From positions 1 through 64,000 of the forward strand of contig JBEKKX010000007.1 in assembly GCA_050010515.1 (NCBI GenBank): DNA of 64,000 nt, given 5' to 3'. Positions 7,646 to 27,752 of the stretch are shown here, piece by piece. Made by a program: the position numbers and the translations under genes. Under the pieces are notes generated by a model. That model made no database searches and was not told the DNA's origin. It saw only the letters and a list, made by a program, of their open reading frames with translations. The stretch is from Candidatus Bathyarchaeia archaeon. Its GTDB lineage: Archaea; Thermoproteota; Bathyarchaeia; Bathyarchaeales; Bathycorpusculaceae. Numbering within the stretch: the first letter of the stretch is position 1; the number at the start of each line of letters is the position of its first letter.

Positions 7646-9028
7646 ATGAAATATGACGTAATAATCGTGGGTGCAGGACCAGCAGGCATCTTCTCAGCGC
7701 TAGAACTAACAGAGAAAACAAACTTAAACGTCCTGATACTCGACAGAGGACCCGACATAGACAAACGCAAATGCCCATCCAGCCGAGGGCTCGAATGTGT
7801 CCATTGTGAACCATGCTCAGTTCTTTCAGGCTGGGGTGGAGCAGGCGCTTACAGTGACGGAAAACTAACTTTGTCAACAGAGGTTGGCGGTTGGCTAAAC
7901 CAGTACGTTTCAACCAAAGAGCTCCAGGCGCTGGTGAAATACGTAGATAGCATCTACCTAAAATTCGGGGCAAGCGAGCAAGTTTACGGTGGAGATAGCG
8001 AAAAAGTAGATGAAATCGAACGTCAAGCGTCGCTTGCGGGTTTGAAGCTTATCAGGCAAGAAGTTCGCCACATGGGCACAGAAAAATGCCTAGAAACGCT
8101 ACATCGAATGCGTAAAGAACTTAACGGCAAAATCACTTTCCGACCAAAAACAGATGTGAAAGGCTTAATCGCTGAAAACCACCTCATCCAAGGAGTGGAA
8201 ACAGTAGACGGCGAAAAAATCATAGGCAAATACGTCATAATTGCTCCTGGCAGAAGCGGAGCAGAATGGCTCCAAACAGAGGCTCAGGTCCGAGGATTAA
8301 AAACCATAAACAACCCAGTTGACATCGGCGTACGCGTTGAAGTTTTAGCTTCAGTCATGGAAAACCTGACCAAAGAGCTTTACGAGCCAAAACTAGTTTA
8401 TTACTCACGACTTTTCGACGATCAAGTCCGCACTTTCTGTGTGTCACCTTACGGCGAAGTCACTACGGAATCATACGATGGCGTCTTAACCGTTAACGGC
8501 GGAAGCTACGCTGAAAGAAAAACCGACAACACAAACTTCGCCATTCTAGTCAGCACCTCCTTCACAGAACCTTTCAAAGAACCTATTGCTTACGGCAAAT
8601 ATGTTGCCAGACTTTCAAACCTCTTAAGCGGAGGAGTAATGGTTCAGCGGTTAGGCGATTTGGTTACTGGACGCCGCTCAACTCCCGAACGCCTTTCCAG
8701 AAGCTTGGTTGTACCAACTTTGAAGAACGCCACGCCAGGCGATTTAAGCTTCGTTTTGCCCTACCGTTATTTAGCAGACATACGTGAGATGCTTCAAGCC
8801 TTAGACGTGATAGCGCCAGGAATCCACTCAAGAGATACCTTGCTCTACGGCATAGAAGTCAAGTTTTACTCTTCACACTTGCAACTAAGCAATGCGTTGG
8901 AAACAAAAATCCAAAACATGTTCACCATCGGCGACGGTGCAGGTGTGACACGCGGTTTAATTCAGTCTTCAGCTTCAGGCGTCATAGTCGCTAGAGAAAT
9001 TCTGAAACGTGAACATTTGGGGGCTTAA
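7646..9028 (+). CDS. FAD-dependent oxidoreductase (COG2509-like)
   Basis: YDVIIVGAGPAG, GWGGAGAYSDGKL, GDGAGVTRGL; probable ATG at 7646. Confidence 0.9.
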   Translation: MKYDVIIVGAGPAGIFSALELTEKTNLNVLILDRGPDIDKRKCPSSRGLECVHCEPCSVLSGWGGAGAYSDGKLTLSTEVGGWLNQYVSTKELQALVKYVDSIYLKFGASEQVYGGDSEKVDEIERQASLAGLKLIRQEVRHMGTEKCLETLHRMRKELNGKITFRPKTDVKGLIAENHLIQGVETVDGEKIIGKYVIIAPGRSGAEWLQTEAQVRGLKTINNPVDIGVRVEVLASVMENLTKELYEPKLVYYSRLFDDQVRTFCVSPYGEVTTESYDGVLTVNGGSYAERKTDNTNFAILVSTSFTEPFKEPIAYGKYVARLSNLLSGGVMVQRLGDLVTGRRSTPERLSRSLVVPTLKNATPGDLSFVLPYRYLADIREMLQALDVIAPGIHSRDTLLYGIEVKFYSSHLQLSNALETKIQNMFTIGDGAGVTRGLIQSSASGVIVAREILKREHLGA

Positions 9029-9030
9029 AC

Positions 9031-9777
9031 TTGACTAATGTAGCTCAAGAAATCAAGTGCAGTCACTGCGGCGCTCCAGTTGAGTTTAAACCAGGAGAAA
9101 TAATTGCTACCTGCAAATACTGCGGCTTCAACACTGTCATCGAGACGGGGCAAGCATTCACGTTTGAGCATTCGCTTATTCTCAACAGGTTTGACCTAAA
9201 AAGTATAGACGAGCCGATTCAGGATTGGATGCGCGGCGGCTTCTTGAAACCAGGTGACCTCGCTAGGAAATCAAAGATTGCTGAGCGAGACTTGGTTTAT
9301 TTGCCATTTTGGGTGGTTTCAGTGGAGGCTAAAAGCACTTACAAGGGCATATTCGAACGCATAGCTCCAGCAATCGTTAAAGAGGGCACAATCTCCAAGG
9401 AATATGAGTGGCTGGTTTTGGCACGTGAAGCTTCCGGTTTCCCGACACGTGAATACTTGGTTCCTTTGGAAGGGAAAATCCCCTTCGACTTCCGCAAAAT
9501 CGAAGGCTTTGCCAAGCTATTAAACAGTGAAATGGACCGTGATGCTGCTTTAGAAATTGCCAAGCAACAAATCGAGGATCACCATCGCTTTCTTCTCGAG
9601 CAAGACGTGGATAAAATAGTCGAGATAAAAACCGAAGTCACCGCCAAACAAGAGGTCTATTTGCATGCGCCCATCTGGTTCATCAAATATGAATACAAAG
9701 GCAAAGTTTACCAGTTGATAATCGAAGGAACCGGTGGAACAGCCCTGAAGGGTGATATTCCCTCTTCAAGATTCTAA
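9031..9777 (+). CDS. Zn-ribbon protein (YdjG-like)
   Basis: CSHCGA...CKYCG, YLPFW and PIWFIKYEYKG motifs. Confidence 0.75.
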   Translation: MTNVAQEIKCSHCGAPVEFKPGEIIATCKYCGFNTVIETGQAFTFEHSLILNRFDLKSIDEPIQDWMRGGFLKPGDLARKSKIAERDLVYLPFWVVSVEAKSTYKGIFERIAPAIVKEGTISKEYEWLVLAREASGFPTREYLVPLEGKIPFDFRKIEGFAKLLNSEMDRDAALEIAKQQIEDHHRFLLEQDVDKIVEIKTEVTAKQEVYLHAPIWFIKYEYKGKVYQLIIEGTGGTALKGDIPSSRF

Positions 9778-9851
9778 GCTTGATATGTTCTAACAAACTT
9801 TAAAAGCGACCTTTTATAATCAACGAATAATAAAAAAGGCGGATATGTAAA

Positions 9852-10388
9852 ATGAGCGATACAAACGATGAATTATCAAACGTTCAAGGTCAAATGTCCC
9901 TCCCTGAGAAGATAGCCGCGTTTGTTCCAGGTTTCCGCGGTTACAAAGAGAAGGAACTGCGCCGCGAAAGCGATAGGCTGATCAGGAATCACCTGTACCT
10001 GAAACTGTCTATTGAAAAGACAGATTTGAGGGAAATTGAGCAGAAGTTGGCTGACCGCCGCTACTTCGATGTCCTGACAGACATGGATCGCCTATTAGCT
10101 AAGATGGATCGTGTTGTTGAGAAAATTAATCATGCCTCTTACGGGTACAGCGGGTTCTTTGACGCTGTCAAAGTCAGAGAAGAAAATCTTGACCATATGA
10201 TAGATTTCGATAATAAGCTTCTAGACGGAATAAACGCATTGACAACTGAAATCGACGCTTTCAAAGCAGATTTAGCCAGCGGCGTAACCACGAACCTGAA
10301 AACCAGGGTTCAGAATGTAACTGACAAACTTGAAAGTTTAGAAAACACGTTTGATCAACGTAATGAAGTAATCTTAGGAGCGAGTTAA
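9852..10388 (+). CDS. conserved helical hypothetical protein
   Basis: PGFRGYKEKELRRESD and ASYGYSGFFD; ends 1 nt before the SPFH gene. Confidence 0.75.
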   Translation: MSDTNDELSNVQGQMSLPEKIAAFVPGFRGYKEKELRRESDRLIRNHLYLKLSIEKTDLREIEQKLADRRYFDVLTDMDRLLAKMDRVVEKINHASYGYSGFFDAVKVREENLDHMIDFDNKLLDGINALTTEIDAFKADLASGVTTNLKTRVQNVTDKLESLENTFDQRNEVILGAS

Positions 10389-15575: not shown

Positions 15576-15601
15576 GGGCTCGTCGTCTAGTACGGATTAT
15601 G
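15576..15601 (+). repeat. 26-bp copy of the 5' end of tRNA-Arg(GCG) (att-like scar)
   Basis: GGGCTCGTCGTCTAGTACGGATTATG is identical to 17248-17273. Confidence 0.9.
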
Positions 15602-15716
15602 CCATCGCTGGCGATATCGCCATACGCTAATTTCTCTGCGGCTTTTCTCTCTTTTTTTGCCTTCTTAATTTTAAGGGGTTCTCTGATGACCAGCGCGCTT
15701 TGATGATTTTGGATAG

Positions 15717-17247: not shown

Positions 17248-17323
17248 GGGCTCGTCGTCTAGTACGGATTATGACACCGGCCTGCGGAGCCGGAGGTCCT
17301 GGGTTCAAATCCCAGCGGGCCCG
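17248..17323 (+). tRNA. tRNA-Arg(GCG); integration target (contains attL)
   Basis: Cloverleaf GGGCTCG/CGGGCCC with anticodon arm CCGGC-CTGCGGA-GCCGG and TTCAAAT. This copy has no encoded CCA. Confidence 0.95.
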
Positions 17324-17549
17324 TTATTCTTTTGCTTAAATCAGCTTGATTTGCGCTCGGATTGCCATTACTAAAATCTGTAACGGCGTTACAATTTTCC
17401 GTAACGCTTAGCCCAGCGCCCTGAAGCAACGTCGCCTCGTCGCGCAGTTGTGCGCTTTTAGCCTTTATACGGCAACGTAGCACACGGCCGTAAGCTTTGT
17501 CAAATTTTTCAGGGGACTTTATGAATTCAAGTTCTACTTTGCTTAACAT
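17259..17549 (-). CDS. Int(N): N-terminal fragment of split SSV1-type integrase
   Basis: Reads through the att as GPLGFEPRTSGSAG, the same peptide that starts Int(C). The two halves join in frame to give 386 aa. Confidence 0.88.
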   Translation of the reverse strand: MLSKVELEFIKSPEKFDKAYGRVLRCRIKAKSAQLRDEATLLQGAGLSVTENCNAVTDFSNGNPSANQADLSKRITGPLGFEPRTSGSAGRCHNPY

Positions 17550-17675: not shown

Positions 17676-17804
17676 TCCGGTGAATATTCACCGTGCAAAA
17701 GCATGGCCCAGTTGCATGATTCCACGGTGATTGAACACCGTACAAACAGACATACGTGCAACGGGCTTTAAATCAAAGCCCTTCCACGGTGATCGAACAC
17801 CGTG
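17676..17804. repeat. palindrome cluster 1 (3 x CACGGTG-N6-CACCGTR)
   Basis: Copies at about 17677 (spacer AATATT), 17723 (ATTGAA) and 17785 (ATCGAA). Confidence 0.9.
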
Positions 17805-17850
17805 TAGGACTGGAGCCGGGCTCAAAAGCGCGTAATGGAGTAGACTAAGA

Positions 17851-19813: not shown

Positions 19814-19996
19814 GCTACACCTTTACTTGCTTTAACAGCTAAGTTAGCGCTTCCTGCTTAAAGCATTTGGGTTCGAAGCGCTTTTGCACATTAGGCTTTA
19901 AAATAGGCTCAGACTGCAAATCCCTCGCTTGTTGTCTGCGAGTACGCCATAAGATACAGCATATAGCAAATTAGCTTAAAGGTGCATACGCATTTC

Positions 19997-20098
19997 CACG
20001 GTGTTCAATCACCGTACAAAAGCATAGCTTCCAATGGGTAAAGCGCTACAGATGCACGGTGAATATTCACCGTAAGGTCATGGAGTACACCGTACAAA
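19997..20098. repeat. palindrome cluster 2
   Basis: Copies at 19997 (TTCAAT) and 20055 (AATATT), plus a half-site CACCGTACAAA at 20088. Confidence 0.9.
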
Positions 20099-20156: not shown

Positions 20157-20918
20157 TTGGCTTACTCAATTATTCGACAGAATTTTCGGTATGGAATTTT
20201 ACTAAGAAAGCATGTAAGCGACAAAACCCTATTAAGTCCAAACATATTATATTGTAAAACTATCATACTTGCCTACAAGGCGAGACTGTTGATAGACGCA
20301 AAAATTAAAGAACTTCTGGGTTTTGATATCGATACTCCGGACAAAAAAGTTTTAGCTGCTTGGAAGGCTGCTTCATCGCGGGTATGCAAACCTTGTTGGG
20401 AACTCAAATATTGCCCATACGGACCCTTTGTTGAGGAGTCGCCATTGCTACCTCCATTACGCGAGGAAATGGTTAAAGAGATTAAGTATCTAAAAAATTG
20501 TCTCAAAACAGGTAAAATGGCTGATGGAAAGCCCTTAGATGTAAAGCGCAAAAAAATCTTCCAAGACGAGATAGATGGATTCAAACCTGAGGATTACCCA
20601 GAAAAAATTCCACAAGAAATTTTAGAATCAAGCTGCAACGTCTTTGGTCATATATGTCCTGTAGTATTTGTTGCTGAGGGATTCACTGAAACTTCTGAAA
20701 ATCGTAGAACTGGAAGATACATACCTTTTAAGGTAAAAATGCGTGTAGCTCGAAGGGATAATTATGTTTGCCAAGAATGTAAACACCAGCTTTTAGATGA
20801 CGAATTAGAATTTGACCATATAATACCTGTTTCAAAGGGAGGCAGTTCAGAGGAACACAATATTCGATTGACCTGCTATGACTGTAACCGAGACAAATTG
20901 GACAGAGTAGACCTCTAA
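20157..20918 (+). CDS. HNH endonuclease with Cys-rich N-terminal domain
   Basis: CQEC...EFDHIIPVSKGG...HNIRLTCYDCN; N-terminal CKPCWELKYCPYG and CNVFGHICP. The real start may be TTG at 20289. Confidence 0.9.
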   Translation: MAYSIIRQNFRYGILLRKHVSDKTLLSPNILYCKTIILAYKARLLIDAKIKELLGFDIDTPDKKVLAAWKAASSRVCKPCWELKYCPYGPFVEESPLLPPLREEMVKEIKYLKNCLKTGKMADGKPLDVKRKKIFQDEIDGFKPEDYPEKIPQEILESSCNVFGHICPVVFVAEGFTETSENRRTGRYIPFKVKMRVARRDNYVCQECKHQLLDDELEFDHIIPVSKGGSSEEHNIRLTCYDCNRDKLDRVDL

Positions 20919-21000: not shown

Positions 21001-21214
21001 CACGGCGTTTGAAGGCCGTAACGGGCACGTCAAGTTTAAGCACCGTGTCATAATACATTAAAGGGCGAAACGTGCGTCTGCAGTTTGTCTGGATAACGGT
21101 GGTACGCTTCCTCACGGTGTTCAATCGCCGTAAAAGCAGCTTTATTTGGGCTCTGATTGGCATTAACCTTCAAGCAGACGGCGCTATGCTTCTGCGCGGT
21201 GTTCGATCACCGTG
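21001..21214. repeat. palindrome cluster 3
   Basis: Copies at 21001 (degenerate), 21113 (TTCAAT) and 21195 (TTCGAT), plus a half-site CACCGTG at 21041. Confidence 0.85.
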
Positions 21215-21332
21215 GAATTGTGCAAGGTAAGCTATTAGCTTAGGCTTGCTTTGAACGTGACCTGACCAAATAATCGGCATACTTGCCATAAAACTTGTCC
21301 GCCTGTCAGCTGATCACTGCACTAAGATTATC

Positions 21333-21378: not shown

Positions 21379-21406
21379 ACACACATATTCAGAGAAGCGA
21401 TTGCTA

Positions 21407-21859
21407 ATGCCAAAAAACATTACACTCTCAATGCCCGATGACGTGGCTGCGGATATGGAAGCCATGCCTGAAGTAAATTGGTCAGCTGTAGCGAAGGGAA
21501 GCATTAAGACGTACATTGAAGCTCGGAAAAAACCCGATATCACACCATTAATTGAAAACCTTCTGCGACAGAAAACCGAAGAATACGTTAACGGAAGAAA
21601 AAAGGCAGACGAGATCGCTGAAAAGTCAGGATATCGATTCGTAGACATAATCGTACGCAAATGCTTTACAAAATCTTCAGAGATCCACGACATGGAAGAA
21701 CAAAACTACCCACCATGGGAAATACCAGATCTTGATCAAGAATTTGAAAAAATACTACTCGACCTCAAGGTAATCACAACGGAAGCTTCAGGAGAGTTCT
21801 TAAAAGGCATTAGGGAGCGATTAATCGAGATATATCACGTGCTCAACCAGCAAGAATAA
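21407..21859 (+). CDS. ribbon-helix-helix (CopG/VapB-antitoxin-like) protein
   Basis: MPKNITLSMPDDV...EVNWSAVA...I RHH pattern. Confidence 0.75.
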   Translation: MPKNITLSMPDDVAADMEAMPEVNWSAVAKGSIKTYIEARKKPDITPLIENLLRQKTEEYVNGRKKADEIAEKSGYRFVDIIVRKCFTKSSEIHDMEEQNYPPWEIPDLDQEFEKILLDLKVITTEASGEFLKGIRERLIEIYHVLNQQE

Positions 21860-21860
21860 T

Positions 21861-21940
21861 GGATGGATAGCTTAGCACGGACTTAAAGCACCCGCCCGCT
21901 AAGCGGAAGACCGTGGGTTCAAATCCCACCCCATCCACCA
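21861..21940 (+). tRNA. element-encoded atypical tRNA, anticodon GCT, short variable loop, CCA encoded
   Basis: GGATGGA-TA-GCTT-AGCACGGACTTA-AAGC-A-CCCGC-CCGCTAA-GCGGA-AGACC-GTGGG-TTCAAAT-CCCAC-CCCATCC-A-CCA. Confidence 0.75.
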
Positions 21941-21964: not shown

Positions 21965-22903
21965 TTAATAAGTTTTTGATCCAGTCTCTGGAACTGGAGG
22001 CTTATTTGTAGTGGTATCCGATTGCATTTTCAGCCTTAAGCTTGTTAAGTACTCAGTATATTTACCGTAGAACTTATCCGCTTGTCGCCTTAGCACCATA
22101 TAATGCTTTGCACCTATGCGCTTTGGCACCCTGCCTTCAATAAAGTCTGCAACGCTTTCTGGAACCTCAAGCTCAACCATCTTGTCAAAGGCGAACTTGC
22201 GCAGATATTTGGGTGCAATCGCCTTATGCTTCCTGCAGCGATGTGCCGCTGTTCCGGGTCTAAACGCTTTTTCTGAGACTTGGCTCAACAGCTTAAAGGT
22301 GTACTCGGTAAAGTATCCGTAGAACGCTTGCTTGTTGCCCCTAAAAGCTCCAATCTCAACGCGGTAAAATCCATTAACCGTCGCAACCTTGTCAGCCTCA
22401 AATTCGCTTATCACCTTAAGCGCCTCGACTAAACGCAACCCGGAGTCAACCAGAAGGTTATACAGAGCCCAATACTTTAGGGTCGCATTTTTGATTGAGC
22501 TTAGGGAGCGTACAATCTCTGGCTCGTCTGGAACTTTAAGGTCTATTCCGGTGCAATTAGCTTTAGGCAGCGATTTTCTGAGAATGTTGACTACCCAGTC
22601 ATCATATCCGAGCGCTTCCAAATAATTAAAGAGAACTCGGAAGCCAAGCCAAAGGTTACGCCTACCTTTCTTAACCTTACTGAAGATACCAATAACATCT
22701 TGGGGATAATTTATCACCTTAAAGTGCCAGTCAAGATAGCGAAGAATATCAGTGATGTAGGTTGAGCTATAGCTTTGAGAATCCAAATATTGCCTAAAGC
22801 CCTGTCGCAAATCAGCCCAAATCAAGCTTATTTTTAAATTCTGAGCGCTTTTGACGCCTGCGGAGCCGGAGGTCCTGGGTTCAAATCCCAGCGGGCCCGC
22901 CAT
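21965..22903 (-). CDS. Int(C): catalytic fragment of SSV1-type tyrosine integrase
   Basis: DSGLRLVE (R), PKYLRK (K-x-x-R), IEGR and AKHY (catalytic Y); begins in attR. Confidence 0.93.
   Translation of the reverse strand: MAGPLGFEPRTSGSAGVKSAQNLKISLIWADLRQGFRQYLDSQSYSSTYITDILRYLDWHFKVINYPQDVIGIFSKVKKGRRNLWLGFRVLFNYLEALGYDDWVVNILRKSLPKANCTGIDLKVPDEPEIVRSLSSIKNATLKYWALYNLLVDSGLRLVEALKVISEFEADKVATVNGFYRVEIGAFRGNKQAFYGYFTEYTFKLLSQVSEKAFRPGTAAHRCRKHKAIAPKYLRKFAFDKMVELEVPESVADFIEGRVPKRIGAKHYMVLRRQADKFYGKYTEYLTSLRLKMQSDTTTNKPPVPETGSKTY
22856..22899 (+). repeat. attR: 44-bp copy of tRNA-Arg 3' half, followed by CCA
   Basis: Exact match to 17280-17323. Confidence 0.95.
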
Positions 22904-26285: not shown

Positions 26286-27575
26286 TTAGCGTTTTTTGTC
26301 AATTTTTTCTTTGTTGCCCATGTATTTTTTCAAAGCACTTGGTATGTTAATTGTGCCGTCTGCTTGCTGATTGTTTTCTAGTATGGCAACTATAGTTCTG
26401 CCTGAAGCTACGGCTGTCGAGTTTAATGTATGAACAAATCCTTTCGGCGGTGCGCCCTCCTTTTCCCTGTAACGAATGCCTAAACGCCTTCCTTGATAAT
26501 CAGTACAGTTGCTGCACGAAACAACTTCGCGGTACCCATTTTGCGCTGGCATCCAAGCTTCAATATCGTATTTTTTAGCTGCTACGGTTCCAATGTCGCC
26601 TGTGCAAACGTTGACAACACGGTATGGCAATTCAAGCTTTTGAAGCAGTTCCTCAGCGTTCTGCAGCAGTTCCTCATGTAGCTTAGTTGAGTCTTCTGGC
26701 TTGCAAAAGATGAATTGTTCGATTTTGTTGAATTGGTGGGTTCGGAATATTCCTCTTGTGTCTTTGCCGTGTGCGCCCGCCTCTTTTCTAAAGCATGTGC
26801 TTATTCCAGCAAGTTTTAGCGGCATGTCCTGTTCTTTTAACACTTCGTTCATGTACATTGCAGCCATAGGATGCTCAGAAGTGGCGATTAAGTATAGGTC
26901 TTCGTTTTCCACTTTATAGAGAACATCAGCAAAGTCTCCAAGTGCCGTTACGCCTTCATATGCTTCACGCTTCATCAAATACGGCGGAATGATCGGCGTG
27001 TAGCCCTTTTTTGTTAGTTCCTCTATAGCGAAGCTCATCAGCGCCATGTCTAATTGTGCGACTTGGTTTTTTAGGTAGAAGAATCTTGCGCCAGATATTT
27101 TTCCAGCTCTTTCCATGTCAATCTGGTCTAATTCTAAGGCTAAGTCGATATGATTTTTTATTGGAAAATTAAATTTTGGGATTGTTCCCCAAGTTTTTAC
27201 TTGCACATTGTCGTTAGAGTCTTTTCCAAGTGGAACACTTTCATCCAGCAGGTTCGGAAGCTGCATGAGGTAGTCATGGGTTTTCTGTTCTTGTTGGGTT
27301 ACTTGCTTTTCGATGTGGGTTATTTTTTCATCGATATCCTGTGCCCTCTCGACTTCGCTGTCGGCTTCCTTGCCAGCTTTTTTTAGTTTGGCGATTTCTA
27401 TGGTTACCTGCTTTCGGTTGTGACGCAGCTCGTTTAGTTTAGTGAGGTTAAATCGCCATTCCTTGTCAACAGCAATTAAATCCTCTAGCATTTGGGTGGT
27501 TTCAGGGTTGCCACGCTTTTCCAAATTATTTTTTACTAGCTCGGGGTTTTCACGGATAAGCTTGATATCTAACAT
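26286..27575 (-). CDS. serS: serine--tRNA ligase
   Basis: MLDIKLIRE, LIATSE, FRKEAG, HQFNKIE, HTLNST. Confidence 0.96.
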   Translation of the reverse strand: MLDIKLIRENPELVKNNLEKRGNPETTQMLEDLIAVDKEWRFNLTKLNELRHNRKQVTIEIAKLKKAGKEADSEVERAQDIDEKITHIEKQVTQQEQKTHDYLMQLPNLLDESVPLGKDSNDNVQVKTWGTIPKFNFPIKNHIDLALELDQIDMERAGKISGARFFYLKNQVAQLDMALMSFAIEELTKKGYTPIIPPYLMKREAYEGVTALGDFADVLYKVENEDLYLIATSEHPMAAMYMNEVLKEQDMPLKLAGISTCFRKEAGAHGKDTRGIFRTHQFNKIEQFIFCKPEDSTKLHEELLQNAEELLQKLELPYRVVNVCTGDIGTVAAKKYDIEAWMPAQNGYREVVSCSNCTDYQGRRLGIRYREKEGAPPKGFVHTLNSTAVASGRTIVAILENNQQADGTINIPSALKKYMGNKEKIDKKR

Positions 27576-27752
27576 TGTTCTCACACGGAGTAATTCTCTA
27601 ACTAACAAAATTAGCTATTTAACTTTGCGATACGGTAGCGGGTGCCTAAGTGCTAGTAGAATACGTAAAGATATAAAATTTCCGCGAGAATTTATTTAAA
27701 AAATAAAAGAAGGTTTGAAGTGGTTTCTTGGTTTTGTTGGTTGTGTCCAGTT

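Follow-up and report, generated by a model that had tools for sequence, protein, structure and literature searches.

Structure of the tRNA Gene

The window analysed in this work is the whole stretch of 64,000 nucleotides from a Candidatus Bathyarchaeia archaeon (contig JBEKKX010000007.1, forward strand). Its subject is a transfer RNA (tRNA) gene at positions 21861–21940 on the plus strand, which is carried by a 5.6-kb integrated element and joins a body closest, by a modest lead, to that of arginine tRNAs with an anticodon for serine codons. The gene encodes a class-I tRNA, that is, one with a short variable arm, and was recognized by Rfam, by ARAGORN, and by the model of its own family (R1). 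The Rfam model RF00005 matched 21861–21937(+) with 53.4 bits (E 1.2e-8), above its gathering threshold of 29, and R1 scored 92.8 bits; ARAGORN called a tRNA-Ser(gct) at 21865–21940, with the acceptor shifted.

The acceptor stem is GGATGGA/CCCATCC, in which A7:C66 is mismatched. It is followed by U8, a D stem GCUU/AAGC, and a D loop AGCACGGACTTA containing A14, G15, G18, and G19 and then A20. The anticodon stem is CCCGC/GCGGA, with C27:A43 mismatched, and its loop is CCGCTAA (C32, C33, G34, C35, U36, A37, and A38). The anticodon G34-C35-U36 (21898–21900, plus strand) pairs with AGC and AGU, which are serine codons in the standard code. The variable loop has 5 nt (AGACC), the T arm is GTGGG-TTCAAAT-CCCAC, position 73 is A, and the CCA end is encoded. 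These features agree with the initial annotation of the window, which had described a full cloverleaf with encoded CCA, the GCT anticodon, and a 5-nt variable loop, as well as A20, C35, and U36 with no long variable arm. The C33 and the mismatches at 7:66 and 27:43 that it had listed were confirmed by reading the sequence against the family alignment. The likeness of the D loop to that of the host arginine tRNAs, A20 included, also held, since the latter have D loops of the AGTACGGATTA / AGCACGGATTA type.

Upstream, at 21830–21835(+), there is an ATATAT located 26–31 nt 5′ of the tRNA and within the 3′ end of the preceding open reading frame (ORF), ORF152. It is a possible archaeal TATA box, which would point to transcription of the tRNA.

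The minimum-energy fold of the single sequence (−30.5 kcal/mol) is not the cloverleaf. In it the D arm pairs with the anticodon, because GCTTAGC (21870–21876, positions 10–16) is exactly complementary to GCTAAGC (21898–21904, positions 34–40). Given the covariation described below, we treat this as the usual behaviour of unmodified tRNA sequences. At the matching positions, the relatives with an ACU anticodon mostly have GCTTAGT/ACTAAGC. A covariation between positions 16 and 34 was considered and dropped, with 10 pairs observed against about 9 expected in 14 sequences counted by hand.

The gene is real and is neither a lone mutant nor an assembly error. Contigs of three of four public DNA sequencing runs from peat and wetland (X5, X10, and X12) cover the tRNA with zero differing letters; for the fourth run (X16) no listed piece spans it, and no variant row falls within 21861–21940 in any of the four. 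The identical tRNA was also found on two metagenome contigs (L353 and L401), while a search of viral contigs with the exact 80-nt sequence gave 0 matches. That this copy is a mutant or an error is contradicted by the run contigs, the identical metagenome copies, and the conservation of the family to which it belongs.

A Family of Related tRNAs

Relatives were sought by blastn and by patterns in 120 genomes of the genus, in 401 genomes of the order, and in metagenome contigs. These searches gave 12 clearly related tRNA copies in 11 of the 120 genus genomes, and the 401-genome search extended this to three further genera within the same family and to a single copy from a different family. The pattern used on the metagenome contigs fixed the D stem and the 3′ strand of the anticodon stem, left position 34 free, and allowed only pyrimidines at positions 32 and 33. 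It gave 95 matches, of which 67 had a purine at position 34, and 65 of these 67 fit the family model at E 1e-12 or better. Judged by eye, the 28 matches with C34 or U34 were either tRNA-Arg(CCU/UCU) of bacterial type or incomplete copies resembling tRNA-Arg(CCU), the majority of the latter adjoining a complete bacterial tRNA-Arg. The family acceptor or T arm was present in none of the 28, and a single one (L340, UCU) had a family-like anticodon arm. Altogether at least 61 distinct relatives were found, and all of them have A34 or G34 followed by C35-U36-A37-A38.

Membership in the family was decided by anticodon and body. The R1 score was discarded as a membership test because family and ordinary arginine tRNAs are not cleanly split by it (87 versus 89–96 bits). 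A looser pattern (GCTAA followed by the T loop) gave, in the 120 genomes, forward counts similar to those of a backward control, and only matches proven to be tRNAs were kept. The matches listed from a scan of genome contigs for a T loop together with RCTAA (R, purine) were bacterial tRNA-Ser genes with GCTAA in the long variable arm, and were set aside. Class-I tRNAs that are unrelated to the family but combine a GCU anticodon with a short variable loop were also seen, both on contigs of bacterial genomes (L095, L104, L154, and L157) and on viral or phage contigs (L176, L177, L187, L196, and L219), one of them inside a phage array of 28 tRNAs; short-arm “tRNA-Ser(GCU)” calls may be a wider phenomenon on mobile elements.

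Positions were counted in 56 distinct sequences out of 70 family rows. At position 34 there are 44 A and 12 G but no U or C, and C35, U36, A37, and A38 are each present in 56/56, as are U8, A14, G15, G18, G19, and A20. The T loop is conserved in all 56 or nearly so. The variable loop has 5 nt in 48 sequences and 4 nt in 8; position 73 is A in 32, G in 23, and U in 1; and the CCA is encoded in 44/56. At 27:43 we found C.A in 27 sequences, A.A in 9, G.A in 3, and a pair in 17, and in the larger set of 61 distinct sequences 27:43 is open in 42. The pair 7:66 is A-U in 32, A.C in 14, and another pair in 10. Position 33 is U in 43 and C in 13 of the 56, a count partly shaped by the pyrimidine-only search pattern; in the 14 genome copies, where position 33 was unconstrained, it is U in 9 and C in 5. 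From these counts, the two mismatches and the C33 of the window tRNA are recurrent traits of the family. C33 recurs in several acceptor-stem sublineages, both with A34 and with G34. The GCU of the window is the minority anticodon in a mainly ACU family, and A-to-G changes at position 34 are seen in more than one sublineage.

The stems covary. Among the 14 genome copies, 14/21 pairs show double changes, and 89.5% of the cells are paired against a shuffled mean of 74.5%, with 0/500 shuffles as high. In the 61 distinct sequences the corresponding values are 16/20 pairs, 94.7% against 82.7%, and 0/500; the test overstates the significance, since the sequences are related to one another. Controls in which the partner strand was slid gave 37–56% paired (maximum 55.8%). 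Acceptor stems as different as GCAUGGA, GCCGAGG, GGGGGCG, GCCCAGA, and GCCUCGU each form a perfect or almost perfect stem with the partner strand. We conclude that the family consists of real tRNAs under structural selection which are carried on mobile elements.

These data bear on the view that the gene is a pseudo-tRNA, a captured copy of a tRNA-Arg with a mutated anticodon that hitch-hikes on mobile elements. The presence of the family in only 11/120 genus genomes, the clearly decayed state of some copies, and the 7:66 and 27:43 mismatches speak for it. On the other side are the compensatory changes in 16/20 pairs, the invariance of the anticodon loop and of the nucleotides of the tertiary interactions, and persistence on at least four unrelated gene backgrounds, and we disfavour this view as very unlikely. 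The window copy itself has none of the lesions of the decayed copies and, with such strong covariation, the earlier suggestion that it is a decaying copy is unlikely. The search for conserved copies in related elements that had been proposed with it was carried out: elements of the same integrase family (L393 and L423) keep the tRNA after a homologue of ORF152, with the CCGCUAA loop.

Arginine Identity Elements and Serine Anticodon

A serine tRNA is expected to have a long variable arm. This arm is absent here, with 5 nt in the window tRNA and 4-5 nt in 56/56 relatives, so the family is not a usual serine tRNA. An anticodon that reads arginine codons (NCG or YCU, where Y is a pyrimidine) is absent as well: the window tRNA has GCU, and all 70 family rows have ACU or GCU. 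It had been pointed out that homologues with a normal UCU or CCU anticodon would make this copy a mutant or an error, and no such homologue is found among the family rows.

The best blastn matches outside the family, in the 401 genomes, were tRNA-Arg(CCU) with 83–86% identity over about 65 nt, and those of the window copy were Arg(UCG), Arg(UCU), and Arg(CCU). When the family model was run on the normal tRNAs of the host, Arg(CCU) came first with 78.0 bits, followed by Ile(GAU) with 75.0, Gly(UCC) with 70.9, Met with 70.5, Arg(UCG) with 66.9, and Arg(GCG) with 66.5, while tRNA-Ser(GCU) scored 43.4 bits and was second to last of 33 matches. Model scores were used in place of global identity to the host tRNAs, which is unreliable since targets with a long arm inflate it. 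The lead of arginine in body similarity suggested by these comparisons is real, with a moderate strength. The “arginine-like body” of the initial annotation is therefore kept in part: Arg(CCU) is the top-scoring host tRNA and the arginine identity set is present, but the lead is moderate.

In bacteria, plants, and mammals arginine identity consists of A20, C35, U/G36, and A/G73, and in the tRNA genes of archaea A20 ranks with the most informative positions, according to the available part of the review by Giege & Eriani 2023 (PMC9976931). The family keeps this set, with A20, C35, and U36 in 56/56 each and A or G at position 73 in 32 and 23 of 56, respectively. To our knowledge, no other synthetase accepts a C35-U36 anticodon. 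The identity elements of one amino acid are thus found together with the anticodon of another, and the combination is conserved across the relatives.

In the host genome (G000; 66 contigs, 98.5% complete) there is an ordinary tRNA-Ser(GCU) of 85 nt with a long variable arm (G000:C5:16225-16309), together with five arginine tRNAs, Arg(CCU) and Arg(UCU) genes included, all with A20 and with D loops of the AGUACGGAUUA type. The arginyl-tRNA synthetase (ArgRS) of the host, whose gene lies on G000:C1 at around 90 kb, has an N-terminal Arg_tRNA_synt_N domain (65.9 bits), which binds the D loop in solved complexes.

The Carrier Element

The 5.6-kb element that contains the tRNA appears to be of the SSV type and is integrated at the host tRNA-Arg(GCG) gene (17248–17323, plus strand; Rfam 59.2 bits, also found by ARAGORN). 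It is bracketed by identical 44-nt direct repeats that represent the attachment (att) sites. The left one, attL (17280–17323, plus strand), is the 3′ part of the host tRNA gene, and attR (22856–22899, plus strand) is a 100% copy of it that lies inside the 5′ end, in the first codons, of the ORF for the C-terminal catalytic part of an SSV-type tyrosine integrase (21965–22903, minus strand; PF16795 with E 1.2e-31 and phrog_5127 with E 2.1e-44). This ORF starts inside attR and is convergent with the tRNA. That the tRNA is element-borne, as first proposed, was borne out by the repeats that flank the insert and by the integrase beside it.

A candidate for the N-terminal half of the integrase, split by integration in the manner of SSV, is an ORF at 17259–17549 (minus strand) that enters the att repeat in the tRNA-Arg. 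It is put forward from the geometry of the att repeats; the ORF matched no Pfam family and resembles the C-terminal integrase ORF solely in the residues encoded by the att repeat. The element also carries an HNH endonuclease gene (20157–20918, plus strand; PF01844 with E 9.8e-12 and PHROG HNH families), ORF152 (21401–21859, plus strand), which has no Pfam or PHROG match and whose stop codon ends 1 nt before the tRNA, and several ORFs of no known family. Among the listed contigs of the DNA runs there was no empty site and no circular junction of the element.

A 33-nt repeat occurs five times between the genes of the element (17713–17745, 17775–17807, 19987–20019, 21103–21135, and 21185–21217); its core, CACGGTG..6 nt..CACCGTG, is palindromic. 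An element regulator may bind at these copies, or they may be an origin. Outside the element, a 32-nt copy of the 5′ end of the tRNA-Arg(GCG), 94% identical, lies at 15576–15607, 1.7 kb upstream of the real gene and on the far side of a pyrroloquinoline quinone (PQQ) beta-propeller gene; it may be the scar of an earlier rearrangement or integration. The gene for seryl-tRNA synthetase (SerRS) at 26286–27608 of the window is a host gene and lies outside the element. Elsewhere in the host genome (G000:C13), the 3′ part of the tRNA-Arg(CCU) gene (65623–65698) is repeated about 19.5 kb downstream, at approximately 85184–85230, and likewise in two other genomes (G030 and G138), which suggests a second integrated element.

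Gene Neighbourhoods and the TGT-Fold Protein

The surroundings of the family tRNAs were counted in 65 metagenome loci, with a median length of 4.9 kb and many of them incomplete. The commonest arrangement is an IS6 transposase, a winged helix-turn-helix (wHTH) protein, a protein with the fold of tRNA-guanine transglycosylase (TGT), and then the tRNA. The TGT-fold protein, of 450 aa, is encoded 14–111 nt upstream of the tRNA on the same strand in 26/65 loci, and a divergent homologue of it lies about 620 nt from the tRNA, on the opposite strand, in 5/65. The gene is also found with a family tRNA at three genome loci (G073, G131, and G090). The wHTH protein is present in 21/65 loci, in 16 of them before the 450-aa gene and in 5 close to the tRNA but on the other strand, next to the divergent homologue. 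The IS6-family transposase gene (NCBIfam 130.5 bits) lies within about 2.3 kb in 30/65 loci and about 120 nt downstream of the tRNA in several.

Other copies follow ORF608 (6/65 loci, 13–80 nt upstream) or ORF237 (6/65 loci, upstream). The integrase of the window type with ORF152 is present in 4/65 loci, with the ORF152 homologue directly upstream of the tRNA; tblastn placed these homologues 5–8 nt upstream in L353, L393, L401, and L423. In three diverged elements of the window type, whose integrases are 51–57% identical, the tRNA comes right after the ORF152 homologue, with the CCGCUAA loop and with compensatory changes in the stems. The tRNA is not tied to one element type and is found on at least four unrelated gene backgrounds. 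For ORF152, ORF269, ORF608, and ORF237, weak helix-turn-helix matches were all that came from Pfam, PHROGs, PADLOC, and NCBIfam.

The frequency of the IS6 transposase is one argument for the tRNA being a secondary attachment site or a landing pad for integrases or transposases. Another is that its 3′ half is 68% identical to the 44-nt att of the element, but this is the ordinary identity between one tRNA and another. Moreover, the tRNA lies outside the shared insertion sequence module, and such a site would not need a whole covarying cloverleaf with a fixed anticodon; we regard this explanation as highly improbable.

The constant position of the tRNA directly 3′ of a protein gene on the same strand, at 1 nt in the window and at 5–8, 13–80, or 14–111 nt elsewhere, is what would be expected of a cis-acting RNA, in which the cloverleaf would be an RNase P/RNase Z processing signal or a stabilizing signal for the upstream transcript and the anticodon would be incidental. 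A mere signal, nevertheless, would not hold A20, C35-U36-A37-A38, and the CCA fixed or almost fixed over 56 sequences, and several copies appear to have plausible TATA-like boxes of their own. We consider this alternative unlikely.

Two further structures were observed around the tRNA. One is a hairpin, its stem about 12 bp long, that stops 7 nt short of the tRNA in L012 (approximately 9960–10025) and at the equivalent positions in L277, L278, and L049, with compensatory changes in one of the four loci (GGGAAAC/GTTTCCC versus GGATAAC/GTTATCC); it may be a leader or processing structure. The other is a motif TCTCTTAAAAGGTTT, shared about 25–35 nt downstream of the tRNA by L245, L246, L264, L044, and L002, whose contexts have little else in common. 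Since host tRNA genes are preceded by a similar box, GCTTAAAA, the motif may be a promoter for the next gene. One family copy (ACU, G090:C5) is identical to a copy on the IMG/VR contig L197 (side observation at 8855–9979). The other genes of the element on L197 include those for a TIR-domain protein, a ParB-like protein, and DNA methyltransferases, as well as a GNAT/ABC-ATPase pair, a cargo that is defence-island-like.

The 450-aa family had no Pfam match. A profile of 24 members (for example, L274:8574-9926, L276:3010-4356, and L045:5599-6840, which together with 22 metagenome ORFs are in alignment A5) was compared with the PDB and matched the archaeosine tRNA-guanine transglycosylase 1iq8 with E 5.7e-4. 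The AlphaFold 2 (AF2) model built from 24 sequences had a pLDDT of 87.9 and a pTM of 0.90; an earlier one, built from 3 sequences, had a pLDDT of 38 and was discarded. With Foldseek the top 50 matches of the model were all TGT, and the archaeal enzyme (ArcTGT, 1iq8) was matched with E 9.5e-8 and a TM of about 0.56–0.68. The zinc motif CxCxxC...H (C382, C384, C387, and H408) is invariant in 24/24 members; D107, P108, E314, and S439 are invariant residues as well. According to the predicted model, the family is an undescribed branch of the tRNA-guanine transglycosylase fold. In the genus, the gene is present in 7/120 genomes, usually after the wHTH gene and near an IS6 transposase. The protein could equally be a DpdA-like DNA modifier; such modifiers are a common cargo of mobile elements.

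A serious rival to decoding arises from this association. The tRNA could be a tRNA-shaped RNA that does not decode and serves as decoy, sponge, substrate, or cofactor of a tRNA-binding enzyme, with the anticodon loop as a surface for recognition by protein. The partner could be the TGT-fold protein, a host anticodon nuclease aimed at NCU loops, or ArgRS itself. It is consistent with the 26/65 loci in which the TGT-fold gene is upstream, the 5 divergent ones, and the three genome loci; with a fold call obtained by AF2, Foldseek, and the PDB profile; and with a linkage between tRNA and TGT-fold gene that persists down to about 25% protein identity. The family features that would weaken decoding, C33 in 13/56 and A34 in 44/56, agree with it too, and phage tRNAs are known to counter tRNA-targeting defences. 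In addition, archaea have almost no tRNAs with A34 (Wu et al. 2018, PMC6000648, in the part available). Against it, the link is not obligate: there are 0 matches of the TGT-fold gene in the genome of the window, 98.5% complete as it is, 4/7 of the genus genomes with the gene have no family tRNA within the fetched flanks, and other tRNA copies follow the unrelated genes ORF152, ORF608, and ORF237. Known TGTs exchange guanine, whereas most of the linked tRNAs have A34, although the invariant G15 is a possible site. No anticodon nuclease was identified, and a decoy would have no use for A20, an encoded CCA, and a complete canonical T arm in combination. We hold a non-decoding RNA to be improbable, yet well within consideration.

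Possible Decoding and Mistranslation

The reading that we favour, tentatively and with somewhat less than even confidence, is that of a functional tRNA of dual identity, descended from a tRNA-Arg(YCU), which would be charged by ArgRS and would pair with AGU and AGC. In a descendant of tRNA-Arg(YCU), position 34, the sole base of the anticodon that ArgRS ignores, would have become a purine, and the host ArgRS would probably charge the tRNA through the arginine identity set that it retains. The A34 version would then pair with AGU and the G34 version with AGU and AGC, so that the tRNA, when expressed by its mobile element, would lead to some arginine being placed at AGY codons. The A34, the C33, and the open 27:43, which leaves an anticodon stem of 4 bp, could be brakes that hold the substitution of serine by arginine at a tolerable level. 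In this chain we infer the transcription, the charging with arginine, the use by the ribosome, and the benefit to the element. The fact that position 34 is always a purine, though the metagenome pattern left it free, lends support to the dual identity. The A34, the C33, and the 4-bp anticodon stem are also reminiscent, in unexpected detail, of natural tRNAs known to mistranslate.

A more specific form of this proposal is that the element-borne arginine tRNA, with A34 or G34, deliberately recodes AGU and AGC from serine to arginine at a throttled level, possibly tuned or used by the TGT-fold enzyme, and that the resulting proteome-wide noise is of use to the element, be it in taking over the host, in addiction, or in stress tolerance. 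We consider it possible but doubtful. If true, no encoded mistranslation system would have been known before from archaea, and none that mobile elements spread.

Several observations weigh against a dual-identity decoder. The body score of Arg(CCU) is only modestly above that of Ile(GAU) (78.0 versus 75.0 bits), and a part of it stems from the common CU..CUAA loop. Archaeal arginine determinants are poorly known and have not been worked out experimentally, as stated in the part of PMC9976931 that was available. That position 34 is a purine throughout counts for little, since transitions are the most frequent kind of change and the copies have a common origin. C33 and A34 are just as compatible with an RNA that is not a decoder. 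Pfam scans found no synthetase domains among the neighbours of the window copy and of 6 other loci. AGY codons amount to 27.6 per 1000 in the ORFs of the element and to 19.1 per 1000 in the flanking host genes; they are not depleted, so there is no sign of the element adapting to its own tRNA. The stretch is present in 20 sequencing runs from 19 studies, with no RNA run among them. Finally, there are visibly decayed copies, one with a deletion in the anticodon stem (G371:C20) and others with multiple lesions (G359:C53, G086, G052, and G118), and from them it follows that the gene is dispensable in the chromosome; such copies are expected of cargo in dying elements.

The same loop features can be read in another way, as those of a backup arginine tRNA that would serve AGA and AGG by an unconventional wobble, with unmodified A34 or G34 and a 4-bp stem, and that would escape a nuclease or the modification dependence of the host tRNAs with U34 or C34. 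Unmodified A34 reads more than U in Mycoplasma and in mitochondria, and here the arginine identity set is intact and 27:43 is open in 42/61 sequences. A 4-bp anticodon stem lets tRNA-Trp(CCA) read UGA, but such stems are common, in 5.6% of bacterial tRNAs (both from the accessible text of PMC13092985). Purine-purine wobble pairing is also the least favoured, Arg(CCU) and Arg(UCU) genes are already present in the host, and no nuclease was identified. A backup of this kind has little likelihood in our view.

The label “tRNA-Ser(GCU/ACU)” that current annotation gives to such genes is almost surely wrong. If the dual-identity tRNA that we favour is charged with arginine, it would be a natural, horizontally carried case of serine-to-arginine recoding and a handle on what the archaeal ArgRS reads. 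If the RNA is not a decoder, it would represent a new class of tRNA-shaped partners for the proteins of mobile elements, among which is a TGT superfamily branch not described before.

Comparison with Known Systems

Very few natural tRNAs have a charging identity at odds with their anticodon; the Candida Ser/Leu tRNA and the Streptomyces tRNAProX are examples. The nematode nev-tRNAs are another example of a mismatch between identity and anticodon. Within the reach of our literature search none was found from archaea or mobile elements, nor was any description of an archaeal or element-borne arginine-like tRNA with an ACU or GCU anticodon, most subscription journals lying outside that reach. The family is also unusual as a whole archaeal family with A34, a base almost absent at this position from archaeal genomes; in the available text of Wu et al. 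2018 (PMC6000648), 11/16 types of ANN tRNA are absent from all 167 archaeal genomes studied.

The archaeal tRNA-Arg(CCU/UCU) are the nearest ordinary tRNAs. They share with the family the class-I body, the A20 in the D loop, the loop C32-U33-N-C-U-A-A, and A/G73, and are its best matches outside the family, with 83–86% identity. They differ from it in that the family has A/G34 and never C or U, a D stem GCUU and not GCUC, 27:43 mostly unpaired, and C33 in about one quarter of its members, and is located on mobile elements and not at a conserved chromosomal site.

Van den Berg et al. in 2023 and Azam et al. in 2024 are said to have described phage tRNAs that, through changes in the anticodon loop, evade defences targeting tRNAs. 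These are likewise tRNA genes of mobile elements with unusual nucleotides in the anticodon loop. They keep, however, the match between anticodon and identity and replace host tRNAs, whereas the anticodon of the family belongs to the codon box of another amino acid. The tRNA-Trp(CCA) that has a 4-bp stem resembles the family in the open top pair of the anticodon stem (here 27:43, in 42/61), but in that case a correctly matched tRNA reads the near-cognate UGA (PMC13092985), and for RCU anticodons such reading is neither known nor predicted.

The tRNA-Ser(CAG) of Candida is a closer case, since it is a natural mismatch between anticodon and charging in which a base other than U33 is thought to limit decoding; G33 curtails decoding by it (PMC11415595, in the part available). 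It is, in contrast, a eukaryotic nuclear gene, and its serine identity is independent of the anticodon, while arginine identity uses C35 and U36 and leaves position 34 free in the present family.

The tRNAProX of Streptomyces and Kitasatospora (tRNAProA/N/T) are dedicated mistranslating tRNAs for which misincorporation has been demonstrated (Schuntermann et al. 2023, PMC10404621, as far as its available text goes), and the accessible portion of PMC11415595 gives all of them A34 and a base other than U33 (A33). As in our family, the body and identity of one amino acid are joined to the anticodon of another, A34 is the rule, the family is conserved, and position 33 is not universally U, which here applies to many members. 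The tRNAProX are bacterial and chromosomal and lie beside a dedicated paralogue of prolyl-tRNA synthetase (ProRS); the present family is archaeal and carried by mobile elements, with no synthetase paralogue found near the loci scanned, and its pairing of arginine identity with serine AGY codons is known from sequence alone. By analogy, the family would work like the tRNAProX kind, without being a member of it.

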